Positions 2,707 through 30,019 of a stretch of 64,000 bases of DNA are shown piece after piece. A program made the translations under genes and the position numbers. Position 1 is the stretch's first letter. Every line of letters starts with the position of its first letter. The notes below the pieces were generated by a model, which made no database searches, was not told the DNA's origin, and saw only the letters and a program-made list of their open reading frames with translations. Origin of the DNA: an uncultured delta proteobacterium (GTDB lineage Bacteria > Desulfobacterota > RBG-13-43-22); NCBI GenBank assembly GCA_963743305.1, contig CAVUPH010000013.1, forward strand, positions 96,001 through 160,000, given 5' to 3'.

Positions 2707-4227
2707 ATGGCACAAGGGGTTCTTTCATTCAAGTATGAAGAGGAGAAGAAAGCGACGGGGATGACGGCGTTGGGGGGATTACCGGTTTATCTGGACTTAG
2801 CCGCGGTCGTGGGGATAGCGGGCAGCATCGAGAGGCACTTACACCTAAAGAAGCAAGGCTGGACGGATACCCAGACGGTACTCTCGTTGCTATTGATGAA
2901 TCTTGCCGGCGGGGATTGTGTAGAGGATTTACGCCGGTTGGAGGGGGATGAAGGATTTTGTCAGGTAGTAAGGCGTATAGAACACCAAGGGCTGAAACGA
3001 CGGGAGCGGCGAGAGGCGGAGCGGCGTTGGCGAAAGGAACGGAGGCGAACCGTGCCTTCCGCCTCTGCAGTTTTTCGATATTTATCATCCTTTCACGATG
3101 CGGAGCAGGAGAAGAAACGGGTGGCGGGGAAGGCGTTCATACCGGTCCAGAATGAGGCCCTAAGGGGATTAGCGAAAGTGAACGGGGACCTGGTTGCTTT
3201 TATGCAGCAGCAGAATCCCCAAAAGGTAGCCACGCTGGATCAGGATGCGACCTTGGTGGAGACGGCGAAGCGGGAGGCTTTATATGGGTACAAAGGATAC
3301 AAGGCCTACCAGCCATTGAACACCTGGTGGGCGGAACAGGAGATGGTCTTACATACGGAGTTTCGGGATGGGAATGTTCCGGCGGGGCATGAGCAGTTAC
3401 GCGTTTTGAAGGAAGCCTTGGCCTTACTACCGGAAGGGGTTGAACAAGTCCGTTTACGTTCCGATACGGCCGGATATCAGCATGAGTTACTCCGATACTG
3501 TGAAGAAGGGGAAGAGGAGCGATTTGGTCGGATCGAGTTTGCGATTGGCTGTGATGTGACCCCGGAGTTTAAGCGGGCGGTTTTGGAAGTAGCGGAACCA
3601 GAATGGAAGGTGATTTACAAGGAGGCGGAAGGGTATCGGATCAAGACGAATCAAGAATGGGCCGAAGTCTGTTTTGTCCCTGGAAAGATAGGTTATAGCA
3701 AGAAGTCTCCGGTGTATCGGTACTTGGCCATCCGGGAGGCAATGGGGTCGATGACGCTACCCGGGATGGCCGTAGTACAGCAGTCATTACCCTTTCCGAC
3801 GATGGAGATCGGCAGGCAAGGGTACAAGCTTTTTGGGGTGGTGACGAATATGGATTGGGAGGGGGGGGCCTTGATTGACTGGCATCGAAAGCGTTGCGGG
3901 AAGTCCGAGGAGGCCCATTCGGTAATGAAGGGAGATTTGGCCGGGGGGCAATTACCTTCTGGTGATTTCGGTGAGAATGCCGCCTGGTTTTGGATCATGA
4001 TTTTGGCCTTGAACCTTAATAGCGCTATGAAGCAGTTGGTCTTAGGGAAGTCCTGGGTATCCAAACGAATGAAGGCGATTCGGTTTTCGTTGATTAACTT
4101 ACCCGGGCGCATTGTTGAACGTTCCCGAGAGTTGATCATTCGGTTGGTGAAGGGGCATCCGGCGTTTGATCTCCTTCTGGAGGCCAGAGGCCGGATCATG
4201 GCCCTTGATCCGGTGCCGTCAGGGTAA
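2707..4227 (+). mobile_element. IS1380-family DDE transposase
   Basis: 506 aa with TLDQDAT, FRDGNVPA, LRSDTAGY and RKRCGKSE..H...K.D motifs typical of IS1380 transposases; inserted between dctM and glgA; probable right end near 4460 (GGTGGTGGATTCAGG); left end unclear (CCACCACC core at 2514-2521). Confidence 0.85.
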
Positions 4228-8704: not shown

Positions 8705-9277
8705 ATGCTGCTAAAAAGGTTTGCCCTTCGCATGTTGGGCGTGGTTTTCTTCATTTTGATCAGTATGCACTGTTCATTGATTTACTCGGCCGAGACCCTT
8801 CCCCCGGGAAGTAAAATTCCGGATTTTGAATTAAAAGGTCCTGCCTCACCCCAAACAAAGGCCTATCTAGAGGTTAGTGATGAAAAGCTATTTTCTTTAT
8901 CGCAGATTAAGACGAAAGTCGTTTTGATCGAATTTTTCGACGTATTCTGACCCGTGTGTCAAAAAAACGCGCCTGTGGTCAACAGGGTCTATAATTTATT
9001 TAAGGAAGACAAAAAGTTGAGTAAAGATTTCAAAATGATCGGCATTGCCATCGGAAATCAGCCCGAAGACGTGTCCTCTTATAAAAAGGCTTTTAAAATA
9101 GACTTTCCCTTGTATGTCGACCCCAAGAAAGAAATCGCCAAAAAGGCAAAAGTGCCAGCCGTCCCCCTTACCATTTTGGTGGACAAGAACGGTAAAGTCC
9201 TCATGAGTCACTCCGGTCCCATAGGGAACTTTGATGCTTACCTAATGGAGATCAAAAAAAAGTTACAGGCGCAATAG
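8705..9277 (+). CDS. TlpA/peroxiredoxin-like thioredoxin-fold selenoprotein (UxxC)
   Basis: ORFs 8705-8950 and 8954-9277 are in frame across TGA 8948-8950, giving EFFDVF-U-PVCQ, the CxxC site of TlpA-like proteins; hairpin CCTGT-GGTCA-ACAGG at 8972-8986; N-terminal signal peptide. Confidence 0.85.
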
Positions 9278-9483: not shown

Positions 9484-10407
9484 ATGCCCGTAAATGAAGA
9501 CGCGGCGGAAGTCCTGGCCCAAAGCCCGGTTTTTAAAGAGTTGCCCCAGAATGCGCTGGAGGCCATCGCCGGGGCGGTAGATGCTCTGGTGGTGCCCCAC
9601 AACTCGATTATCCTCAGACAGGGCGATCCCGCTGATTGCCTCTACATCATCCGCTCCGGGTCCGTAAGGATCTTCAGGAGAAACCCAGAGGGGTTGAATT
9701 TAGACATTTCCATCAAGGGGCAAGGGGAGACCTTTGGGGAAATAGCGCTCCTGACCGGAGAACCCAGGTCAGCCGACGTGGAGACGTTGGAAGAGACCCA
9801 CCTGATGGTTCTCTCCAAAGATCAACTGGATCGAATCATGAGCGAATTTCCCGACATCTCCAAAATGTTCGTCAGACAGATGCGGAGTTGGCTGATCAGC
9901 GATGAAAAGCGTCTTGAGATCCAGGCCCAAGAAGTACGCAAGTCTTGGCGGATTACCTGGTTTGATTTTCTTCTGATTATGGTCGTCAGCGTTATCCTGG
10001 CCACGATTTTCAACTACTCCAATCCTAACGGAATCCCTCTTTTCCCCGAATATCCCGACAGAAACGCTTTCCCGACAATAAGTCCTGCGGCGGCCTGGGA
10101 AGAATTCCGCAGCCGTCAATCGCTATTTTTAGATGCCCGACCCGCCAATTTTTATCAAGAGCGCCACATTAAAGGGGCGGTCAATTTTCCTTTGGCACTT
10201 TTCGATATCCTTTACCTGATGACCTTCGCCAAAGAAGACAAGGAAAGGAAAATTATTGTCTATGGAGGAACGGTCAGCAAACTCTATGACTTGGAGTTGG
10301 CCGGGAAGCTGATCCTCCGAGGCTACGAGAAAGTCAGGGTCCTGGAAGGGGGGCTGGCGGCCTGGGAGGAAAAAGGATTTCCCCTGGAAGAAAAGGAGAA
10401 GGAATGA
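9484..10407 (+). CDS. Cyclic-nucleotide-binding domain, TM helix and rhodanese-like domain protein
   Basis: GETFGEIALL and PRSADV (cNMP); FLDARP..Y..HIKGA and LEGGLAAW (rhodanese). Confidence 0.85.
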   Translation: MPVNEDAAEVLAQSPVFKELPQNALEAIAGAVDALVVPHNSIILRQGDPADCLYIIRSGSVRIFRRNPEGLNLDISIKGQGETFGEIALLTGEPRSADVETLEETHLMVLSKDQLDRIMSEFPDISKMFVRQMRSWLISDEKRLEIQAQEVRKSWRITWFDFLLIMVVSVILATIFNYSNPNGIPLFPEYPDRNAFPTISPAAAWEEFRSRQSLFLDARPANFYQERHIKGAVNFPLALFDILYLMTFAKEDKERKIIVYGGTVSKLYDLELAGKLILRGYEKVRVLEGGLAAWEEKGFPLEEKEKE

Positions 10408-10907
10408 TCGGGCCGCACCTCCGGGGAATATTGACGAGCAAATATTTGGCTTTCGCGCTCCGGTTGTGCGTGGGAGGATTTTTCCTCTACGCCAGCATGA
10501 GCAAGATCGTTTATCCGGCTCAGTTTGCGGAGGCAACGGCTGATTACCGACTTTTGCCCTATTGGCTGCTTAACCCGGTGGCGGTGATTTTGCCGTGGGT
10601 GGAGTTTGTCTGCGGGCTGTTTCTGGTCATCGGATTCACCTCGAGGGCTTCCGTCGTCCTTATAGGACTATTGCTGGTGATGTTCAATATGATGGTACTG
10701 ATCAACATGTACTGGGGGGCCTCCATCAGTTGCGGGTGTTACGATACTGTCGGTGAGCCCATCGGCTGGAAGAAAATCGCTGAAAACATCCTGTTGCTGA
10801 TTTTTACCATCCACATCTACTATTTTGATCGACTCTTGCTGTTTCGCCGGGGAGGCCGGACTGATCCGGCAAAAATCATGGTCCCTTCTCCTAATACTTC
10901 ACGATAG
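10404..10907 (+). CDS. MauE/DoxX family redox-associated membrane protein
   Basis: LPWVE, ISCGCY motif, about 4 TM segments; overlaps upstream stop. Confidence 0.85.
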   Translation: MIGPHLRGILTSKYLAFALRLCVGGFFLYASMSKIVYPAQFAEATADYRLLPYWLLNPVAVILPWVEFVCGLFLVIGFTSRASVVLIGLLLVMFNMMVLINMYWGASISCGCYDTVGEPIGWKKIAENILLLIFTIHIYYFDRLLLFRRGGRTDPAKIMVPSPNTSR

Positions 10908-10916
10908 GGGTCTCCC

Positions 10917-11261
10917 ATGGGTGTAACTCCAAAATCCATTTTTCATTACCGGTTGCCGACTCTTTTTCTGCTATTGATCCTCGTATCCGCCTGCGGCTCG
11001 AAAAACGAAGTCGCCGGAAATTACCAGGCCTCGGGAAAAGACTTCCCCGGAGAGGCCACGACCGTCCTGGAGCTCAAGGCCAATGGAGAAGGCGCCTGGA
11101 AATCAGGCGGTGAAGAAATACCCTTCTCCTGGTACCTTAAGGGCGCTGAGCTTAGAATTAACACCAAAGGGGGCGGAGTCATCGTCGGCGACATCGAAAG
11201 GGATACGATTCGCCTAACCCTTCCCGGCAGTAAGCAGTTAACTTTTCGGAAAATCAGGTAA
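10917..11261 (+). CDS. Hypothetical lipoprotein
   Basis: Lipobox VSAC followed by a small beta-rich domain. Confidence 0.7.
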   Translation: MGVTPKSIFHYRLPTLFLLLILVSACGSKNEVAGNYQASGKDFPGEATTVLELKANGEGAWKSGGEEIPFSWYLKGAELRINTKGGGVIVGDIERDTIRLTLPGSKQLTFRKIR

Positions 11262-11317: not shown

Positions 11318-12115
11318 ATGGATTGGAAAAACGACCCGGCCTATCACGGTAAAATACTAACCGGCCATTACAGCCAGGCGCTCAAAGAGCGGGTGGCAAA
11401 ATGTATAGCCGATAATCGCGTTTTCGAAGATACGGGAAACCCTGCTATCTGTTATATCGCCGCCTGGCACGAAAAAGATCGCATCATCTGGTACGAATTC
11501 GCCAGCAGTCGGTTAAGCGAGTTACTGGATTGTGAAGCTGGGCAAGTAGCCGAAGTCTTCCGCAAGAGCGTGATCGAACGGCGCGTCTACAAATACCAAA
11601 CGGATGAACCTGGAATAAAGAAAGAAATCATCCACCGACCGGAACTGACCAGTTTCCGAAAACAGTTGCGCGAGGAGGTAAAAAAGACCGGTGTCATCGA
11701 GGCGGTTTATAAACTTTCTTTACCCGCCGGTCGATCTTTTTGGCTGAAGGATCAGGCCGAGATAGAAAGGCATCCAAGGGACCACTCCAGCATCTCCCTT
11801 GGCTGCCTGACCGAGGTCTCCAAGGAAATGGAAGCCGCGGAAGAACGGGAGAGGCTGGTGGTAGAGCTTCAGGAGGCTTTATCCAAGGTCAAACAGCTTA
11901 GCGGTTTGCTGCCCATCTGTGCTTCCTGCAAAAAAATACGGGACGACCAAGGATATTGGAATCAGATCGAAGAATATATTCGGAATCACTCCGAAGCCGA
12001 TTTCAGTCATGGCCTTTGCCCCCCCTGCATCGAAAAACTTTACCCCGATTATGTCCAAGATAAAAGCAACAGGGATGAAATGGCAAAAAAAACGGGCAGA
12101 AAAAATTTCACTTGA
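11318..12115 (+). CDS. PAS-like domain protein with C-terminal Cys-rich (LPICASCKKIRDD...SHGLCPPC) domain
   Basis: Conserved C-terminal motif common on deltaproteobacterial signalling proteins; PAC-like FWLKDQA segment. Confidence 0.7.
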   Translation: MDWKNDPAYHGKILTGHYSQALKERVAKCIADNRVFEDTGNPAICYIAAWHEKDRIIWYEFASSRLSELLDCEAGQVAEVFRKSVIERRVYKYQTDEPGIKKEIIHRPELTSFRKQLREEVKKTGVIEAVYKLSLPAGRSFWLKDQAEIERHPRDHSSISLGCLTEVSKEMEAAEERERLVVELQEALSKVKQLSGLLPICASCKKIRDDQGYWNQIEEYIRNHSEADFSHGLCPPCIEKLYPDYVQDKSNRDEMAKKTGRKNFT

Positions 12116-12140
12116 AATCACAGCAAAGGAGGAAACCAAG

Positions 12141-12845
12141 ATGACCCAGACGATCACCCGGGATAAGACTTTTCAGGTTGTTATGAAACGAATGGTGGAA
12201 AAGGGGCGGGCCCCGCATTATACGGAAATTGCGTCGGAGTTGAGGGTTTCAGTCGAAGAAGGCAGGAAGGCCCTTCACGACCTCCATTTCCCGGGATTTC
12301 CCGGTTGGCTGGCTCCCAATACGGATTATATCTCGTCATTTCCGCCATTCAGCAACCTGCCCACACAATACCGCATCACTATTGAGGGTCGGCAGGATTG
12401 GTTCGGCCAATGAGGGTTTGAGTCGCTGGCGGTCAGCTGGCTCTTCCCCGGGAAAACGGTCCAGGTCGATGCCCCTTGCCTCGATTGCGGTTCTCCGATC
12501 AGGATCCGTATGAAAGATGGTAGATTAGAAAGTACCGATCCCGAAAACCTGGTAGCCTACACCTCGGTCCCATTCCGGGAATGGTTTAATAACCTCCCCT
12601 ACGCCTGAAGCACCATGAATCTCTTCCGGTCGGAAGAGCACGTTCGTAACTGGAGTGGATTTAAAACGAAGACCGAGGAAGGCATCATTCCTTTATCCGC
12701 AATGGTCAATGTCTTCTCGGGAAATTTCTTCGCGAAGAGGCTGGATCCGGATTATATGTCGCACTTTCAGGAGTATATTGGTGAATTCATTTCGACGGTC
12801 AAGGAAATCGGGAAATCCCGTCCATTTTGGGCACCCGAGTCTTAG
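12141..12845 (+). CDS. MerB (organomercurial lyase)-like protein with two predicted selenocysteines
   Basis: AAGGAGG RBS at 12126-12132; one reading frame through TGA 12411-12413 (WFGQ-U-GFE) and TGA 12606-12608 (PYA-U-STMNLFRSEEH), 234 aa; N-terminal HTH-like region, PTQYRITIEG (like MerB TPHRFxVDG) and CLDC; hairpins after both TGAs. Confidence 0.82.
12420..12443 (+). promoter_or_regulatory. Putative bacterial SECIS element for TGA 12411
   Basis: GAGTC-GCTGGCGGTCAGC-T-GGCTC stem-loop with GGTC 17 nt after the TGA. Confidence 0.6.
12621..12638 (+). promoter_or_regulatory. Putative bacterial SECIS element for TGA 12606
   Basis: Perfect CTCTTCC-GGTC-GGAAGAG hairpin starting 12 nt after the TGA. 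Confidence 0.75.
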
Positions 12846-12938
12846 AGGGAACCCCATCTTTGCGGAGACAGTACGGCAATCCGCGGCCAGGAGGCGTACG
12901 GAGCCAGATTTCCCCATAATAAAGAGTGAGGGCGGACA

Positions 12939-13403
12939 ATGTATTTCGAGGAATTTGTGGTTGGGGCTGAATTCGCTACTGGCCCGCGGCAGATAATCAA
13001 TGCCGAGGTGACCGCTTTTTTGGATCTCTCCTTGCTTAAAAACCCGATTTTTATGGATGACCAGGCCGCCCGGACCGTTGGGCACCCGAAACGCATTCTT
13101 CCGGCCCCGTTACTCATTAGTATGGCCATGGGCTTATGTCAGCAACGGGGGCTTTTCGACCATATGGTCGCAGTCTTGGAGTTCGAATACGTCAAGTTCC
13201 AGAGACCCAGCTATCTCGGCGATTCGGTCCAGGTAAAAAGCCGGGTAGTCCTGGCCCGACCGACCAAGAACCTTCACCGGGGACTGGTCAAAATACGTTT
13301 TGAGCTCCACAATCAACGCCGGGAGTCCGTATTGGAAATGCAGGCGGTATATTTGATGGTGCGCCGGCCACCCGAGAAATCCATTTTGCCAATCACCCCT
13401 TGA
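12939..13403 (+). CDS. MaoC/PaaZ-like hot-dog fold dehydratase
   Basis: MYFEEFVVG, NPIFMD, VKFQRPSYLGD motifs. Confidence 0.8.
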   Translation: MYFEEFVVGAEFATGPRQIINAEVTAFLDLSLLKNPIFMDDQAARTVGHPKRILPAPLLISMAMGLCQQRGLFDHMVAVLEFEYVKFQRPSYLGDSVQVKSRVVLARPTKNLHRGLVKIRFELHNQRRESVLEMQAVYLMVRRPPEKSILPITP

Positions 13404-13438: not shown

Positions 13439-14281
13439 ATGGACAAACTGATCATTACCGCGGCTTTGACCGGCGCCGCCCCCACCAAGGAGCAAAATCC
13501 CGCCGTTCCTTACAGCCCGGAGGAAATCGCGACCGAAGCCCTGCGGTCCTGGCGGGCCGGGGCCGCTATCGTGCATATCCATGTTCGCGATCCCCAAAGC
13601 GGGAAGCCGGCCTTTAAAAAGGAACTCTTCGCCGAGGTAGTGGATCGAATCCGGGCGGAGAGCGATGTGCTCATCAACCTGACTGCCAGCGCTTTTAACC
13701 TGGAAGGACCGGAAGTGGGCCTCCGGCGTCTCATGCCTTTGGAGCTGGAACCCGACCTCTGTTCCCTGGATGTGGGCAGCCTCAATTTCCGTGGCGGCCG
13801 GGTCTTTGTCAATCCTCCGGATTGGGTGGAACTGGCGGCTGTGGAAATGCGGAAGGCCGGGGTAAAACCGGAGCTGGAAGTCTTTGACCTGGGACATGTC
13901 CGCCAGGCCGTCGATCTGCTGGAAAGAGGTCTTCTGGACGATCCGCCCTATTTTCAGATTTGCCTGGGTGTGCCCTGGGGGATAAACGGCGACCTGGAGG
14001 GACTTCTGGCCATGAAAAATCGCCTGCCCCCAGAATGCCAGTGGTCCGTAATGGGGGTAGGGCCCACGCAGCTCCCGTTGACCACCCAGGCGCTGCTTCT
14101 GGGCGGACACGTCCGGGTGGGGTTTGAAGACAATCTCTACCTGAGCCGGGGGATGAAGGCCGACTCCAATGCCCGGTTTGTGGAACGGTCCGTCGCTCTG
14201 GCGAAGCTGCTGAACCGGGAGGTGGCTTCCTGCACCGAGGCGCGGGAAATCCTCAGGCTTCCTTCCCGCGGGAACTCCTGA
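13439..14281 (+). CDS. Beta-keto acid cleavage enzyme (3-keto-5-aminohexanoate cleavage family)
   Basis: IITAALTGA, GAAIVHIHVRD, KPELEVFD, GGHVRVGFEDN motifs. Confidence 0.92.
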   Translation: MDKLIITAALTGAAPTKEQNPAVPYSPEEIATEALRSWRAGAAIVHIHVRDPQSGKPAFKKELFAEVVDRIRAESDVLINLTASAFNLEGPEVGLRRLMPLELEPDLCSLDVGSLNFRGGRVFVNPPDWVELAAVEMRKAGVKPELEVFDLGHVRQAVDLLERGLLDDPPYFQICLGVPWGINGDLEGLLAMKNRLPPECQWSVMGVGPTQLPLTTQALLLGGHVRVGFEDNLYLSRGMKADSNARFVERSVALAKLLNREVASCTEAREILRLPSRGNS

Positions 14282-14430: not shown

Positions 14431-15366
14431 ATGCCTGAAATTGGAATTATCGGCGCCGGGACCATGGGCCACGGCATCGCCCAGTGCTTTGCCGTCAAAG
14501 GGTGGCAGGTCAGGCTATATGATGTCAACCGGGAGGTCCTTGACAGCGCCCCGGTCCGCATCCGTTCCAATCTGGAACTCTTTATGGAATGTGGATGGGC
14601 TCAACCGGAGTCCGTCGAGGCAGCTCTTCGGAATATTGCTTTATCTGAAGACCTGCCTTCGACCGTCCGGACCCCTGAGCTGATCATCGAATCGGTCAGC
14701 GAAGAATTGGACCTCAAGCGCCGTCTCTTTGCGGAATTGGAGGAGCTGACCATTCCGGAGACCATTCTCTGCAGCAATACCTCGGCCTTGAGCATTACCT
14801 CCATCAGCCGAGGTCTGAAACACCCGGAACGGGTCCTCGGCACCCATTTCTGGAACCCGCCCCATATCCTGCCCTGCGTGGAAGTAATCAAAAGCGAAAC
14901 CACTTCCGACCGGGTTTTTGAAGAAGTCGTCTTCCTGTTGGCCGGTTTGGGCAAGGAACCGATCCGGGTGCTCCGGGATGTGCCCGGGTTCGTAGGCAAC
15001 CGCATGCAACACGCCCTGCAGCGGGAGGCCATGAACTTGGTGGACCAGGGGATTGCCGCGCCGGAGGAGGTGGACCGGGTGGTCAAATTCGGCTTTGGCT
15101 TGCGTCTGGCCCTGATGGGACCGCTGGAGCGTTCCGACTGGGGTGGGCTGGACATCACTTACCGGGTCCAAAAATATCTGCTGCCCTACCTCTGCAATGA
15201 TACCAACCCCTCACCGCTGCTGACCCGGAAAGTGGCAGCCGGGGAGTTGGGAGCCAAAACCGGGCAGGGCTGGTATGACTGGCCGGAGGAGAAAAAGGCT
15301 CGGGCTATTAAAGAGAGAGATCGGCGATTGATTGAACTCATTCGATTGACGCGCCAGGAAGGATGA
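14431..15366 (+). CDS. 3-hydroxyacyl-CoA dehydrogenase
   Basis: GAGTMGHGIA, SNTS, GTHFWNPP, PGFVGNR motifs. Confidence 0.92.
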   Translation: MPEIGIIGAGTMGHGIAQCFAVKGWQVRLYDVNREVLDSAPVRIRSNLELFMECGWAQPESVEAALRNIALSEDLPSTVRTPELIIESVSEELDLKRRLFAELEELTIPETILCSNTSALSITSISRGLKHPERVLGTHFWNPPHILPCVEVIKSETTSDRVFEEVVFLLAGLGKEPIRVLRDVPGFVGNRMQHALQREAMNLVDQGIAAPEEVDRVVKFGFGLRLALMGPLERSDWGGLDITYRVQKYLLPYLCNDTNPSPLLTRKVAAGELGAKTGQGWYDWPEEKKARAIKERDRRLIELIRLTRQEG

Positions 15367-19103: not shown

Positions 19104-19445
19104 CTAAAGAGCCAGGCTTAATCTAAGTGCCTGGTCAACCTCTTCCATTTTCTTCTCTTCAATGAGGCCCAATCTTTTTTCCAGTCGATCTTTGGAAACC
19201 GTGAGGATTTGGCCGGCTTTTACGATGGAGGGTTTAGTCAATCCTCCCTGGGGTGGTTCGATCAAGACATTCATGGGATAAATTCTGATGGCGGCCGAAA
19301 GGGCGGCGACAATCGTGGTGGAGGCATGTTCATTGCCAATATCGTTTTGAATAACCAGCGCGGGCCTTTTCCCCGCCTGTTCGTTTCCGCGGGCAGGATT
19401 CCAGTTGACCAGCCAAATTTCACCGCGTCGGGGAAAGGGATTCAT
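19104..19445 (-). CDS. mazF: MazF/PemK endoribonuclease toxin
   Basis: RRGEIWLV, GNEQAGKRPALVIQND, QILTVSKDRL. Confidence 0.92.
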   Translation of the reverse strand: MNPFPRRGEIWLVNWNPARGNEQAGKRPALVIQNDIGNEHASTTIVAALSAAIRIYPMNVLIEPPQGGLTKPSIVKAGQILTVSKDRLEKRLGLIEEKKMEEVDQALRLSLAL

Positions 19446-19675
19446 CGCAACATTTTCCTTTGGACCTCAAAAGCCCATTCGGCCCATTGCCTGTCTTCTT
19501 CCGCCATTTCCCGGTATCCCTTCCTCATCAAAGTCCCAGTCTGCTTTGTTAACCACAGGGAAAGGGCTTCCTGGGCTACTTGGCTGCGAGCCATCTTAAA
19601 ACGCTTGCTGGCTTGGTCAATAGCCGTGCATAATCCTTCGTCGATGGTAATCGTTATTTTCTTTTTGGTTTGCAT
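19442..19675 (-). CDS. Ribbon-helix-helix antitoxin (MazE/NdoAI-like)
   Basis: KITITID RHH strand, MRKGYREMA tail; 4-nt overlap with the toxin gene. Confidence 0.85.
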   Translation of the reverse strand: MQTKKKITITIDEGLCTAIDQASKRFKMARSQVAQEALSLWLTKQTGTLMRKGYREMAEEDRQWAEWAFEVQRKMLR

Positions 19676-19781
19676 AATACCCCCAATAAATCAGATTTTT
19701 TATAAGATATTATGACATATTAATTATCCTGTCAATTTCTATATTTTAAACGGGACTTTCTGGTTAGGAAAGGTCATCGAA

Positions 19782-22700
19782 ATGACACTGACAAGAAATA
19801 CCCCAAGCAGAAGCAGTCGCCCAATCCTCCGGAAAGCTGTTCCCCGGGAGCGGCTTTTTGAGCGGCTGGACCGCTTTTGGGAAGGCCCGGTCATCTGGAT
19901 CTCCGGTCCGGGGGGCTGCGGCAAGACCACCATGGCCAGTTCCTACCTGCAGGAACGGGGTATCCCCAGCCTCTGGTACCAGGTCGAGGAGGCCGACAAA
20001 GACCTGGCCACCTTCTTTTATCATTTGGGAGCCGCCTTTAGCAGTGCTTTCCCTAAACGAAAAAAAACCCTGCCCCTTTTGACCTCGGAATATCTTCAGG
20101 GCATCCCCACCTTTGCCAGGCGTTTTTTTAAGGAAGCCTTCAGCCGCTTGAAACCCGGGACCACACTCGTTTTCGACAATGCCCAGTTCATTCCGGAAAA
20201 TTCAATCGTCCAGGAGGTTGTTCTCCTGGGGGTGAACGAAATCCCCCAGGACAAGCACCTGGTGCTGATCAGCCGGGGGACCCCGCCCCCATCCTGGATC
20301 AGGCTTCAGGCTAACCAGCAATTGGGGCTCTTGACCTGGGAGGACCTGCGCCTGACCTTAGAGGAAACAGTGGAGATCGCCCGACTGCGAGGCGACCGGG
20401 ACGCTCCCGCAAGAGACGATTGAACACGTGCACGCCCTGGCGGACGGCTGGGCGGCGGGATTGATGCTGATGTTGGACAGCCTGAGCCAGAGGGATCGAT
20501 CTCCCGGCGGTGGAGGAAACCACCCGGGAGGGGATCTTCCATTATTTTGGAAATGAGATCTTTGCCAGGATCAGCCCGGAGGTTCAGGATTTTTTTCTGC
20601 GGACAGCCTTTCTGCCTCAAATGACCATCGGTATGGCGGAAGACTCTGACAGGCCTCCCCCAGGCCGGTTCCATCCTGTCCGCGGTGATGCGGAACAATT
20701 ATTTTATCGAGCAGCGATACCTCCAAGAGCCGGTTTACCAGTACCACCCTTTGTTCAGAACATTTTTACGCCGTAAGGCCAAGGTCATTTTTGACCCGGA
20801 ACCTTTCAAGGAATTAAGCCGGAAAGCCATTCACCTTCTGGAAACGGACGGGCAGATCGAAGAAGCTTTCCATCTGGCCCGGGAAGCGGATGACCGGGAA
20901 ATGATAAAGCGGATCATCCTTCAGCAGGCCCCAACACTGCTGTGGCAGGGAAGGTACCTTCTGCTGGCGGAATGGCTGGACGGCTTACCAGGCGATCAGA
21001 TTGAACAGGATGCCTGGCTTCTGTTCTGGAAAGGAACCGCCCGGTATCTTTATGATCCAGTTCCAAGCCGGGATCTCCTGGAGCGGTCTTATGAAAAGTT
21101 CAAGCAAAATGAGGAAATAGACGGGATGCTGCTGGCCTGGTCCACGGTCATTCGAGCCATCATTCAATGCACGTATGACCAGTTGGACCATTGGATTGAT
21201 GAACTTGAACTCCATATCCGGGATCCTTTCCAGGAATTTCCTTCTCCCTGGATAGGGTCCCAGGTTTCCACCTGTATGTTTTCGGCCCTGACCCAGAGAC
21301 AGTCCGGTCATCCGGAGATAGAGCAATGGGCGGATCGCGCCTTGGCCCTGACGGAGGCCCCTGAATTTAAATACGATAGAATGATGGTTCTATTCCATCT
21401 GATACTTTACGGAATCTATGCCGCCCGTTTTGATAAGGCCACCCTGGCGCTGGAACTGCTCAACTCGTTGAACCAGACTCTGGAAATACAGTCGGTCAAT
21501 CGTGCCTGGGGCTACCTTGGAGAGGCCATATTTTTTGACATGGCGGGCTTCCCGGAGAAATGCGAAAAGGCCGTTTCCGAGGGTCTTGAGTTTTCCCGAA
21601 CCTTGGGCTTCCATGCCGCGGACGATTTATTGCTGTTTCACGCCATCCAGAATTCATTGAATATGAATGACACCGAAAAGGCGCGCCTGTTCATTAACCG
21701 GTTGTCAACCTCCTCGAACAGCCCGGGGATGGAAAACAGGGCTATGGCCACCCGTGATCAATACTTATATTGTTTAAGTTTAGCCAGAGAAGAACTTATT
21801 CGGGGAGCCTACGATCAAGCCGCCATTCATGGAGAGGAGGCCCTGCGTTACGGGATCGAGACCGGCGCTCCGTTCATTTTCGGGGTCGCTTATTTGCTGA
21901 ACGCCGTTATTCTGAATCACCGCGGGATGGATGATAAGGCCCGGGAATACCTTTCCCAGGGCTTGGCCTCCTCCCGACAGATCAAGAGCCCATTCCTGGA
22001 ATTCAATGCCCGGCTGCAGCAGGCCTATATGGCCTTCAAGAACCAGGAGGAGAACCAGGGCCTCATGTTTCTCCGGGAAGCGTTGATCCTGGGGAAGGAA
22101 GCGAAGTTATTGAATACCTACATTGATTGTCCGGCCGATACCGCCTTTCTCTGCGAGAAGGCGCTGGAAGAGGGGATCGAGGTGGAATATGTCCAGGAAA
22201 TCATCCGCCGGAGACGACTGGTGCCGGAAAGCCCTCCGGTTCATCTGGAAAATTGGCCCTGGCCGTTAAAGGTGTACACCCTGGGGCAATTCAAAATTTA
22301 TAAAGATGGGCAGCCCCTCCGTTTCTCCCGCAAGGCCCAACAGAAGCCCCTCGATCTGCTCCAGGTCCTCATTGCCACCGGGGACAGAGGCATCCGGGAT
22401 GAGGAATTGGCCGATGCCCTCTGGCCGGAGGCCGACGGGGATGCAGCGGCCCAAACGTTAAAGACCACGCTGTATCGGCTTCGCCTGCTGATCGGCAAGG
22501 ACGAGGTGGTTAAGGTCCGCGAAGGGCGGGTGAGCCTCGATTACCGTCATTGCTGGACCGACGCCTGGGCCTTTGAACAGCTTCTAGGAGAGGCTGATCG
22601 GAGCAATTCCCAGGCCGCCCTTCCGCTGCTGGAAAAGGCCATCGGGTTATACCAAGGCCCTTTTCTGGTCCGGGGAATGGAGGAGCCCTGGCTGCTGTCC

Positions 22701-22997
22701 GCTGCGGAAAGGCTGCGCAGCAAGTTCCTGCGCGGGGTTGAAAAATTGGGATCTTTCTGGAGCCGAGGCGGGGAGTGGGAGAAGGCCCGTGAGTGTTACC
22801 GGAAAGGGCTGGAAGTGGACGGGTTAGCCGAGGAATTCTGCCAGGGCTTGATGCTGTGCTGCCAAAACCTGGACTTGAAGGCCGAGGCTCTATCTCTATA
22901 CAAGAATTTTGAGAAGAGACTTAAAACGGAACTGGGAATCGAACCGGCCGCCAAAACCAGGGCCTTACGGGACAGCTTGCTGGGAGGGGCGTTATGA
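19782..22997 (+). CDS. MalT-like ATP-dependent regulator with C-terminal SARP/BTAD domain (three +1 frameshifts at about 20410, 20505, 20642)
   Basis: Walker A GPGGCGKTT, WEDLRLT, GWAAGL, YQYHPLFR, TPR-like core, TLGQF..wHTH, LWPE, LYQGPFL, ELGIEP; consecutive pieces in frames 0, 1, 2, 0. Confidence 0.85.
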
Positions 22998-23109
22998 GGG
23001 GAGTAGAGAGAAGACAGAACAGAGAAGAGAGATAAAAGATGGAAGATGGAAGAAAAAGACAGGGGGAAGAGGGAAGAGTGAAGAAAAAATTAGACAGGCC
23101 GGAGGCCAT

Positions 23110-28775: not shown

Positions 28776-29225
28776 ATGTCCTTGCAAATCCTCAAGATAG
28801 CCGCGCAGATTCGCCGAGTTATCAACCGGTCCATGTTCCTGGAGAAACGGACCATTTTGCGCCATGAAGCCCTGCGGCTTTATCCCTCGGAAATCCATCT
28901 GCTGCAGGTCATCCACGAATCCCCGGAACTGAGCGCCGGGGAAATGGCTCGGAAGTTGGGCATCAGCATTGGAGCCGTGTCCCAGACCCTGAATCGGCTG
29001 GAGAAAAAAGGGGTTATCCATAAGACCAAGGACCCGGCCCTTAAAAACAGGCTGTCGGCCAGATTGACCGGGGTCGGACAAACGGCTATCCGGCAATTCG
29101 AACAAGGGCAGGAGGTTACGATGAAGGCGTTTTCCAGCTACCTGGGCGGATTGTCAAACGGAGAAAGAAAGGTTGTCGAGGGATTTCTATCCCACTTGGA
29201 GGAATTCTTGAAACGCCTGGAGTAA
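28776..29225 (+). CDS. MarR family transcriptional regulator
   Basis: LYPSEIHLL, EMARKLGISIGAVSQTLNRLEKKG, LT..G. Confidence 0.9.
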   Translation: MSLQILKIAAQIRRVINRSMFLEKRTILRHEALRLYPSEIHLLQVIHESPELSAGEMARKLGISIGAVSQTLNRLEKKGVIHKTKDPALKNRLSARLTGVGQTAIRQFEQGQEVTMKAFSSYLGGLSNGERKVVEGFLSHLEEFLKRLE

Positions 29226-29275: not shown

Positions 29276-30019
29276 ATGAACAACAGTTTGCTGACCGGCT
29301 TTTGGCGTACCATGGTGGGAGTGCCTCCCTTTCTTTGGGAGAAACAGATTAAAAAGACAAGACAAAAAGTTACAAAGGCCATGGCTTTCATGTCACCGGA
29401 CCATCGCCGGGTTCATCACTATGTGGTCCGGGAGTTGCCGCGGATAGGGGGTCCGCTGGAGGCGGAAAGGGTGGCCCGGGATCTGGTCTTGTCCGTGGAG
29501 CGGACCATTGAAATTTTACAGGATCTGGAGAAGCATTTGACCTTTCTGGTTCGGAACGAGCAGGGGCAGGTCGTCTGGGCCTACCCGGTTACTGTGGAGA
29601 AAACCCCACACCGGATCAGCTTTGGATCAGGGGAGCAATTGTATTCTGCCTGAGCGGTGGACGCTTTCGCGACGCCCTTCGTGCAAGGGCGACTGAGACA
29701 GGAGCAGGTGGTTATTCAGGTGGAAACGGAATGCGCCCATTGTAAAGAGCCCATGCGCCTGGAAATCGACAGCGATATGCATTGCCATGGCCAGGAGTCC
29801 GGAGACAACTTGATTATTTTTGTCCCCGACGTGGATTTCGGACGCCTGAAAGATCCCACCATCATCGAGGCCTTCTGAAAAGAAAGCGTTTTCTTCCGGT
29901 CGGAAGAGCACGCCAGGGCGTTTCGAAGGAAAGAGCATCGAATCCGTGGTGCGTATTTCACCACCGTTCAGATCGCTTATTTAAATAAGGCCATCCAAAG
30001 CGCCATCTTTGGCTGGTGA
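29276..30019 (+). CDS. Second MerB-like protein with two predicted selenocysteines
   Basis: AGGAGG RBS; single frame through TGA 29651-29653 (AYPVT..TPHRI...LYSA-U-AVDA) and TGA 29876-29878 (IIEAF-U-KESVFFRSEEH), 247 aa; CAHC; hairpins after both TGAs. Confidence 0.85.
29673..29691 (+). promoter_or_regulatory. Putative SECIS for TGA 29651
   Basis: Perfect CGCCCTT-CGTGC-AAGGGCG hairpin 19 nt after the TGA. Confidence 0.55.
29886..29913 (+). promoter_or_regulatory. Putative SECIS for TGA 29876
   Basis: TTCTTCC-GGTC-GGAAGAG 12 nt after the TGA, extended by GCGT/ACGC; nearly identical to 12621-12638. Confidence 0.75.

Follow-up and report, generated by a model that had tools for sequence, protein, structure and literature searches.

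Two predicted selenocysteines at the catalytic positions of a MerB-fold protein from an uncultured delta proteobacterium

We analyzed a 64,000-nucleotide stretch of DNA (the window; positions 96,001 to 160,000 of contig CAVUPH010000013.1, assembly GCA_963743305.1) from an uncultured delta proteobacterium of the Desulfobacterota lineage RBG-13-43-22. The window encodes a 234-residue protein, here called copy 1, that resembles the organomercurial lyase MerB and has an in-frame TGA at each of the two catalytic cysteine positions. Both TGAs are very probably selenocysteine (Sec, U) codons, and copy 1 is then a true two-Sec selenoprotein with the MerB fold. The full reading, in which this bis-Sec protein acts as an organometal(loid) lyase, has in our judgment about an even chance of being right. 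A divergent paralog that also has two TGAs, copy 2, lies further along the window. All coordinates are positions within the window unless another contig or locus label is given. The features of copy 1 are as follows.

12141-12845, plus strand: copy 1 coding sequence, a predicted 234-residue MerB-fold selenoprotein with Sec91 and Sec156; TAG stop codon at 12843-12845
12126-12132, plus strand: ribosome-binding site AAGGAGG, 8 nt before the ATG, read from the sequence
12411-12413, plus strand: TGA 1, codon 91 (Sec91), in the context WFGQ-U-GFE; aligns with MerB Cys96
12420-12422, plus strand: codon for Glu94; aligns with MerB Asp99, the proton donor
12477-12488, plus strand: CxxC motif, Cys113-Leu-Asp-Cys116 (CLDC); Cys113 aligns with MerB Cys117
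12606-12608, plus strand: TGA 2, codon 156 (Sec156), in the context PYA-U-STMNLFRSEEH; aligns with MerB Cys159

An earlier note, made from the letters alone, had described a 234-residue frame that starts behind a strong ribosome-binding site and reads through TGA twice, and translation gave exactly that frame. The note had also placed the TGAs at the MerB catalytic cysteines, a glutamate at the Asp99 equivalent and a CxxC in the Cys117 region. A phmmer alignment to the MerB sequences in the PDB agrees at each position: U91 falls on Cys96, U156 on Cys159 and E94 on Asp99, and the CLDC at residues 113 to 116 puts C113 on Cys117. The alignment is numbered by the chain of 3f2g, which is the C160S mutant of MerB. 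In the MerB mechanism, the Cys pair binds the metal and Asp99 protonates the leaving carbon.

The profile search and the structure comparison that the earlier note had proposed both pointed to MerB. The read-through protein matched the Pfam MerB model PF03243 at 78.6 bits (E 5.2e-22), well above the gathering threshold of 27 bits. A phmmer search of the PDB sequences returned MerB2 (5c17; E 4.6e-8) and the E. coli plasmid MerB. An AlphaFold2 model of copy 1, built from 18 family sequences, had a mean predicted local distance difference test (pLDDT) score of 87.4 and a predicted TM score (pTM) of 0.84. In a Foldseek search of the PDB with this model, all 11 matches at E <= 0.001 were MerB or MerB2 (E 6.5e-10 to 3.5e-7, TM 0.46-0.67, identity 14-20%), and the next match had an E value of only 0.24. 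Compared with MerB, the model adds about 45 helical residues at the C terminus (approximately residues 185-226), and this extension ends in a conserved F-W. The pattern U-x-x-E...U was invariant in 18 of 18 sequences of the copy 1 family. C113, D115 and C116, which lie outside the pattern used to select the sequences, were kept in 72 of 72 two-Sec sequences. The Glu94 position was acidic in the same 72 of 72, partly by construction, because the selecting pattern allowed E or D alone.

We found the two TGAs in the same places across a wide set of relatives. A search of 41 related genomes gave matches in 16 of them. Exactly two in-frame TGAs were present in 25 of the 26 matches, at 43-99% identity; the 26th is a 101-residue N-terminal fragment. 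When 20 loci were translated with read-through, the TGAs were always at the same two columns. We also scanned one genome per species across 185,579 species, which yielded 467 relatives of copy 1 confirmed by tblastn. Our counts over public loci cover the best 80 of these 467 stretches, with 81 copies. Among them, 78 copies were U/U (73 by a strict pattern and 5 by eye from the aligned rows), one was Cys/Cys (L081), one was Cys/Sec (L096) and one was a fragment. Site 1 was TGA in 79 of the 81 copies and Cys in the other 2. The 80 loci come from metagenome-assembled genomes (MAGs) labelled Deltaproteobacteria, Desulfobacterales, Syntrophobacterales, Desulfatiglandales, Desulfomonilaceae, Desulfarculales or Thermodesulfobacteriota. 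In an evenly drawn phylum sample of 301 genomes, 33 genomes had a match at E <= 1e-10, for 38 matches in total. Exactly two TGAs were present in 29 of the 38, and one more had three; the two-TGA carriers were 28 of the 301 genomes and belonged to at least 10 families. The pattern that the earlier note had looked for, TGA or Cys at these columns, is therefore what the relatives show, with TGA kept at both and Cys in few. Of 75 family members, 62 have TAA or TAG as their real stop codon and 13 have TGA.

No variant letter, TGC and TGG included, was seen at either TGA in the sequencing runs and contigs that cover these codons, and contigs from other samples carry the same letters at both TGAs. 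The runs matching the gene had word shares of at most 0.19 and short contigs only on the gene, so that a gap in their coverage carries no information. In two metatranscriptome libraries (X4 and X10), contigs were 95-99% alike to parts of the gene, which does not by itself prove transcription. In two loci, L008 (911-1303) and L027, the closest relative (86% identical), a truncated duplicate of the first ~100 codons lies upstream of the ortholog. The duplicate adjoins a long poly-T/poly-G run (which translates as FFFFFFF/GGGGGG) and may have arisen in assembly or through a local duplication.

A hairpin resembling the bacterial Sec insertion sequence (SECIS) follows each TGA of copy 1. Both were found as minimum free energy (MFE) folds.

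12425-12441, plus strand: SECIS-like hairpin 1 of copy 1, with a 6-bp stem GCUGGC/GCUGGC and the loop GGUCA
12621-12638, plus strand: SECIS-like hairpin 2 of copy 1, with a 7-bp stem CUCUUCC/GGAAGAG and the loop GGUC

The loop of hairpin 1 sits +21 to +25 nt from the U of UGA 1, and that of hairpin 2 sits +23 to +26 nt from the U of UGA 2. The classical E. coli fdhF SECIS has an apical GGUC loop about 22-25 nt from its UGA. RNAalifold, run on 28 sequences for each hairpin, recovered both stems with 6 pairs and one broken cell apiece; the stems showed a few single changes, compatible through G-U pairing. We then compared codon usage in 72 distinct two-Sec sequences. The fraction of the major codon in the 11 codons after the TGA was 0.73 for TGA 1 and 0.87 for TGA 2, against 0.55 in 130 other conserved columns. 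This suppression of synonymous change gave a Mann-Whitney p of 1.5e-7, a generous value, since the sequences are kin. Codons 160-167, which form hairpin 2, are the most frozen 8-codon window in the whole gene. In a wetland metagenome run (X2), the summed contig depth was 190 over 12397-12450 and 1345 over 12586-12666, and it was 0-40 elsewhere. These depth peaks over the TGAs and hairpins fit conservation at the nucleotide level, with the rest of the gene less than 85% alike among divergent relatives. We infer that the hairpins recruit SelB with Sec-tRNA(Sec), that Sec is inserted twice and that translation ends at the TAG.

The earlier note had implied that copy 1 is one of two copies, and the second is real. 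A PF03243 search of the whole genome gave exactly two matches, both with two TGAs and both in the window. The tblastn search with copy 1 had given chance-level matches only, because the paralog is too divergent, and copy 2 surfaced through the Pfam model. Its features, and those of the gene directly before it, are listed here.

29276-30019, plus strand: copy 2 coding sequence, a 247-residue paralog; the TGA at 30017-30019 is its real stop codon
29651-29653, plus strand: first predicted Sec codon of copy 2, in the context Y-S-A-U-A-V-D, with Asp as in MerB
29876-29878, plus strand: second predicted Sec codon of copy 2, in the context A-F-U-K-E-S-V-F-F-R-S-E-E-H
29891-29908, plus strand: SECIS-like hairpin after TGA 2 of copy 2, UUCUUCC-GGUC-GGAAGAG, an MFE fold that aligns with the copy 1 family
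28776-29225, plus strand: MarR-family regulator gene directly upstream of copy 2 (Pfam MarR, E 3.4e-13)

Copy 2 scored 57.4 bits against Pfam MerB. BLASTP aligned it to copy 1 with 24% identity over 155 residues, and both Sec positions and both Cys of the CxxC (E-C-A-H-C in copy 2) were aligned. Despite this low protein identity, the letters of hairpin 2 are nearly identical in the two copies. The copy 2 family keeps U-x-x-D...U. Both TGAs are kept in 8 relatives, one of which stops with TAG right after FGW. We chose the start at 29276 over 29270 because GGAGG abuts 29270 and the alignable N termini of the relatives start at the equivalent Met. A model of copy 2 from 7 sequences had a pLDDT of 59 and is unreliable. 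The MarR gene lies upstream of the copy 2 ortholog in the loci of 6 of the 8 relatives, and this position behind a regulator suggests inducible detoxification or turnover. Copy 2 is present in 10 of 21 family genomes, the window's own included, and is dispensable in some relatives. One ortholog (L115, G020:C6:349399-350067) looks decayed, with 3 TGA and 1 TAA inside the match, and of another (L116/L117, G001:C7:205994-206211) two short fragments are left.

The earlier note had asked for the Sec machinery, and most of it was found. The genome has one tRNA-Sec, a SelB-type gene (a 657-residue frame that matches PF09107 at 76.5 bits) and selD, which itself has an in-frame TGA. The component missing from the assembly is selA. 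Further predicted selenoprotein genes, one for a UxxC redoxin in the window and one for an HgcA with a CU motif, also speak for Sec decoding in this genome. The selD match (L005/L006, G000:C26:75850-76774, minus strand) comes as two overlapping pieces that cover model positions 2-135, with one TGA, and 127-310. It is a Sec-containing SelD that may also hold a frameshift or an assembly error.

Public protein sets hold this family in broken form, as the earlier note had expected of standard gene callers. When 1.84 billion representative proteins were searched with a profile, 1162 matched at E <= 0.001. The best 150 of these were mostly pieces bounded by the TGAs, with lengths of ~90-91 residues (profile positions 1-90), ~63-74 residues (92-155) and ~74-77 residues (159-233). 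In a collection of 5.8 billion clusters, we examined 119 of the 120 proteins listed. Among these, 42 were full length with Trp at both sites and came from short contigs called under a code with TGA as Trp (code 4). Another 55 had Cys at site 1 and ended at ~155 residues, just before site 2; they are probable Cys/Sec forms, a state inferred from their end point and verified on the DNA for L096 only. Two were full-length Cys/Cys proteins, and none of the 119 was named as a selenoprotein. Some of the ~155-residue entries, from Dehalococcoidia and Rokubacteria MAGs, are named 'organomercurial lyase'. Because the gene is split or misread as W in the public sets, metagenomic surveys of mercury-cycling genes cannot see the family.

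We next weighed the Sec assignment against the reading that the TGAs are not Sec codons, and that copy 1 is instead a pseudogene, three small open reading frames (ORFs), an assembly error or a gene with TGA as Trp or Gly under another code. The separate database proteins of ~90, 63 and 77 residues and the W-bearing full-length entries (42 of 119) favor that reading. So does selA, which was not found in this 90%-complete assembly with the PF03841 and TIGR00474 models. Also counting against Sec are an Rfam scan of 12100-12900 at E <= 10, which returned no SECIS family and three chance-level matches (E 2.4-3.9), and the RNAalifold result, which held zero double compensatory changes in either hairpin. 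However, selA exceeded the cut-off in 19 of the 20 other family genomes, all three from the genus among them, and we therefore read its absence as an assembly gap. The lack of covariation reflects stems that are almost invariant, so the support from the hairpins lies in their conservation and frozen codons. The same two TGAs recur across many genomes, at 43-86% protein identity, in an intact frame with full-length homology. Homologs show Cys at these columns, and no TGG-coded Trp was seen among them. In 13 of 75 family members, as in copy 2, the frame truly ends at a TGA. Finally, the hairpins are conserved, tRNA-Sec, selB and selD are encoded, and the same letters occur in contigs of other samples. 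A non-Sec origin of the two TGAs is thus hardly credible.

A MerB-like selenoprotein is already in print, as the earlier note had said of other lineages. It is SaoL (NF040728), the marker of a nine-gene locus called SAO (selenocysteine-assisted organometallic). Its single Sec lies at the Cys159 position as part of a CU dipeptide, and its first site is still Cys, according to the portion of the preprint available (10.1101/2022.07.06.499078). In the part available of a 2026 review, the table gives SaoL as the sole MerB-like selenoprotein ('CU, 1'; PMC13188914), and SaoL also has a table row in PMC9312934. A literature search, which did not cover supplements and image tables, found no MerB-like protein described with Sec at both catalytic positions. 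The two-Sec form is probably new; MerB-like selenoproteins as such are known through SaoL. Copy 1 is most improbably a SaoL ortholog working within an SAO system. NF040728 was the best NCBIfam match of copy 1 (E 1.6e-10), and the two selenoproteins share a MerB-like character, an anaerobic host and Sec at the position of Cys159. However, the scores of 41.2 bits for copy 1 and 45.5 bits for copy 2 are far below the cut-off of 140. The motifs are Y-A-U-S and A-F-U-K, with no CU, and the first site is also Sec. Pfam scans of 20 neighbors, made without the SAO hidden Markov models (HMMs), showed no SAO-type ATP-binding cassette transporter (SaoABP) or efflux protein (SaoE), and the neighborhood is not conserved in 80 loci. 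Score, motif and context therefore all refute SaoL membership.

A maximum-likelihood tree of 47 rows was built from 11 sequences of the copy 1 clade, 7 of the copy 2 clade, 21 Cys/Cys forms and 8 truncated forms with Cys at the first site. The tree has no root, no proven MerB and no SaoL. The copy 1 clade is nested among Cys/Sec and Cys/Cys forms, and one Cys/Cys sequence lies inside it. The copy 2 clade is on a separate long branch. On this tree the sites must have changed state 9 times or more, so Cys and Sec have been exchanged repeatedly at both positions. Such repeated exchange is the behavior of catalytic or redox residues.

Copy 1 is a solitary gene that belongs to no mer or SAO operon. 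Its neighbors encode a histidine kinase, a redoxin selenoprotein, a cyclic nucleotide (cNMP)-binding/rhodanese protein, MauE/DoxX, two unknowns, MaoC, a beta-keto acid cleavage enzyme (BKACE), a 3-hydroxyacyl-CoA dehydrogenase (3HCDH) and PolA. The neighboring features are listed below.

8705-9277, plus strand: redoxin/ResA-like selenoprotein gene with the active site U-P-V-C; TGA at 8948-8950
9484-10407: cNMP-binding/rhodanese gene, after the redoxin gene
10404-10907: MauE/DoxX gene
10917-11261 and 11318-12115, plus strand: two genes upstream of copy 1, with no Pfam or NCBIfam match and with homologs in 2 of 80 loci
12939-13403: MaoC-like gene, downstream of copy 1
13439-14281: BKACE gene, downstream of copy 1
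14431-15366: 3HCDH gene, downstream of copy 1

The UxxC redoxin looks like a secreted thiol-disulfide oxidoreductase, and standard gene calling shortens it to 8954-9277. MaoC, BKACE and 3HCDH follow copy 1 in the order that the earlier note gave, and its statement that merA, merR, merT and merP are absent holds for the 20 neighboring proteins scanned. We rejected a functional link between copy 1 and MaoC/BKACE/3HCDH, which are adjacent in 0-1 of 80 loci. Since they are not conserved neighbors, they say nothing about function. Each of the window neighbors lies beside the gene in just 0-3 of 80 loci by tblastn and blastp. Among flanking ORFs clustered de novo, the top non-self clusters were found in 17, 11 and 7 of 80 loci and appeared by eye to be signalling (sensor/cyclase-like), acyl-CoA dehydrogenase and AMP-ligase proteins. 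Elsewhere in the window, a read-through frame at 19209-23006 was rejected as a selenoprotein gene: its three internal TGAs are not Sec, and the stretches between them read as junk. The segments 19782-20423 and 20685-22997 (plus strand) appear by eye to be a large ATPase/TPR/BTAD-like regulator split into two frames; since the read-through between them is junk, this is a frameshift or a pseudogene and not a case of Sec.

What copy 1 does is less certain than what it contains. From the conserved Sec-x-x-Glu/Asp...Sec triad, we put the chance that copy 1 is a carbon-metal(loid) bond lyase at roughly one side of a coin toss. By the alignment, its residues at the three catalytic positions differ in letter from those of MerB but are chemically analogous, and they plausibly preserve the MerB chemistry. 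In the proposed mechanism, an organometal(loid) compound, most likely methyl- or other organomercury, would be gripped at its metal(loid) atom by the two selenolates. Glu94 would then protonate the leaving carbon in the style of MerB protonolysis. Selenolates carry no proton at physiological pH and are softer ligands than thiolates, which would suit trace levels of substrate. Because MerA is absent, we propose that the invariant CxxC (Cys113/Cys116) would help to hand on the tightly held metal. As a chemical precedent, selones that mimic MerB break Hg-C bonds more quickly than the corresponding sulfur compounds do, as far as the part of PMC11639659 available goes.

Several points weigh against a lyase of the MerB type. 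Copy 1 is far below the cut-offs of the NCBIfam MerB equivalogs NF009710 and NF033555 (31.2 vs 193 bits and 24.6 vs 200 bits), and copy 2, at 58 and 46.8 bits, is also below the 193 and 200 bits needed. The identity of copy 1 to the solved MerBs is just 14-20%. Pfam scans of the 20 neighboring proteins showed no mer genes, and flanking-ORF clusters in at most 17 of 80 loci give no conserved partner that would hint at a substrate. The 90%-complete genome has no MerA above cut-off (TIGR02053, best 378 vs 454 bits); the matches below it are paralogous flavoprotein disulfide reductases. Two selenolates would let go of a mercuric ion, Hg(II), only with extreme difficulty. Such tight binding would argue for another metal(loid), a stoichiometric trap or a release partner.

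These points bear on a different reading, which we consider possible but on balance unlikely: a protein with the MerB fold and two Sec that lacks lyase activity and serves as a high-affinity trap or chaperone for metal(loid)s such as Hg, Cd, As or Cu, or as a redox protein that cycles through diselenide or selenenyl-sulfide states together with the CxxC. The MerB scaffold would then serve binding or electron transfer only. Its four invariant soft ligands (Sec91, Cys113, Cys116 and Sec156) would fit this, Cys116 being absent from MerB, and so would the poor release of Hg from a bis-selenolate and a genome without MerA above cut-off to accept the product. Bacterial selenoproteins are mostly redox proteins, in the available parts of two surveys (PMC9312934, PMC13188914). 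One change in the MerB site gives a copper binder, and MerB binds other metals, according to the available portion of 10.1101/2022.07.06.499078. The UxxC redoxin/rhodanese/MauE-DoxX cluster lies 2.9 kb upstream of copy 1, but it is near the gene in just 1-2 of 80 loci. Against a non-lyase, the acidic residue at the Asp99 position is invariant (Glu in the copy 1 family, Asp in copy 2), and it is needed for protonolysis, not for mere binding. By eye, D or E is also there in most Cys/Cys homologs. In addition, the whole substrate-side fold of MerB is kept, with high model confidence.

A link of the lyase to mercury is weakly supported. Both genes of mercury methylation were found in the same genome.

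G000:C17:97500-102500 (L118), 1463-2596: hgcA (NF040863, 455 bits vs 275), with an in-frame TGA and an A-C-U-P motif
G000:C17:97500-102500 (L118), 2750-3088: hgcB (NF040864, 123 bits vs 99)

Because hgcA and hgcB score above the NCBIfam cut-offs, the organism is likely a mercury methylator, and one with a selenoprotein as its HgcA. HgcA has an N-terminal CU motif and the majority of HgcA proteins contain Sec, as stated in the part of Haft and Gwadz available (10.1101/2022.07.06.499078). In the 301-genome sample, HgcA was present in 14 of 28 two-Sec carriers and in 77 of 273 noncarriers (odds ratio 2.5, one-sided Fisher p 0.017), a co-occurrence that is confounded by relatedness and genome size, since kin are not independent. 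However, 12-14 of the 28 two-Sec carriers are without HgcA. MerB homologs are frequent in anaerobes, and a link to cohabitation with methylators has been proposed (PMC10114901). The portion of that paper available treats methylmercury (MeHg) degradation in anaerobes as mechanistically unsettled and does not mention selenocysteine. That the two-Sec family is the missing mer-independent organomercury/organometal lyase of anaerobes seems to us quite doubtful. If it were so, Desulfobacterota with hgcAB could dismantle MeHg at picomolar-nanomolar levels without MerA, through a bis-selenolate enzyme that passes the metal to its own CxxC or to sulfide. As a concrete candidate gene, copy 1 makes MeHg degradation in hgcAB anaerobes testable.

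The family is common and widespread (467 stretches over 185,579 species; 28 of 301 genomes in the phylum sample). If its members are such organomercury lyases, environmental 'merB' counts have missed a major demethylation gene. Sec at both metal ligands of one active site is rare, and copy 1 would be a naturally occurring bis-selenolate counterpart to a textbook organometallic enzyme. Such a site bears on the chemistry of cleaving Hg-C or other metal-carbon bonds. The repeated Cys/Sec switches at both sites would allow a comparison, among natural proteins, of what an enzyme gains from selenium.

Copy 1 can be compared with three kinds of known protein. With MerB (EC 4.99.1.2; PDB 3F0O/3F0P/3F2F, and MerB2 5C17) it has in common PF03243 and the fold, and its residues align at the positions Cys96, Asp99, Cys159 and Cys117. 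It differs from MerB in having Sec at both catalytic Cys positions and Glu for Asp99; copy 2 has Sec/Asp/Sec at the catalytic positions. The additional Cys116 of copy 1 makes a CxxC at the Cys117 position, and the helical C-terminal extension of ~45 residues ends in F-W. Moreover, copy 1 is without a merA/R/T/P context, and its MerB equivalog scores are far under the cut-offs. Closer, at 47-65% identity, are proteins of the same subfamily with a Cys/Cys or Cys/Sec site (such as L081 = P0172, P0203 and the 155-residue 'organomercurial lyase' entries from Dehalococcoidia and Rokubacteria MAGs). They share Q-C/U-G-F-E, C/U-S-x-M-N-L-F-R-S, the CxxC and the F-W tail, and have Cys at one or both sites. 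SaoL and copy 1 both come from strict anaerobes and are MerB-like selenoproteins that carry Sec where MerB has Cys159, and both are cut at the TGA in databases. The proposal for SaoL, in the available part of 10.1101/2022.07.06.499078, is organometallic chemistry and not classical resistance.

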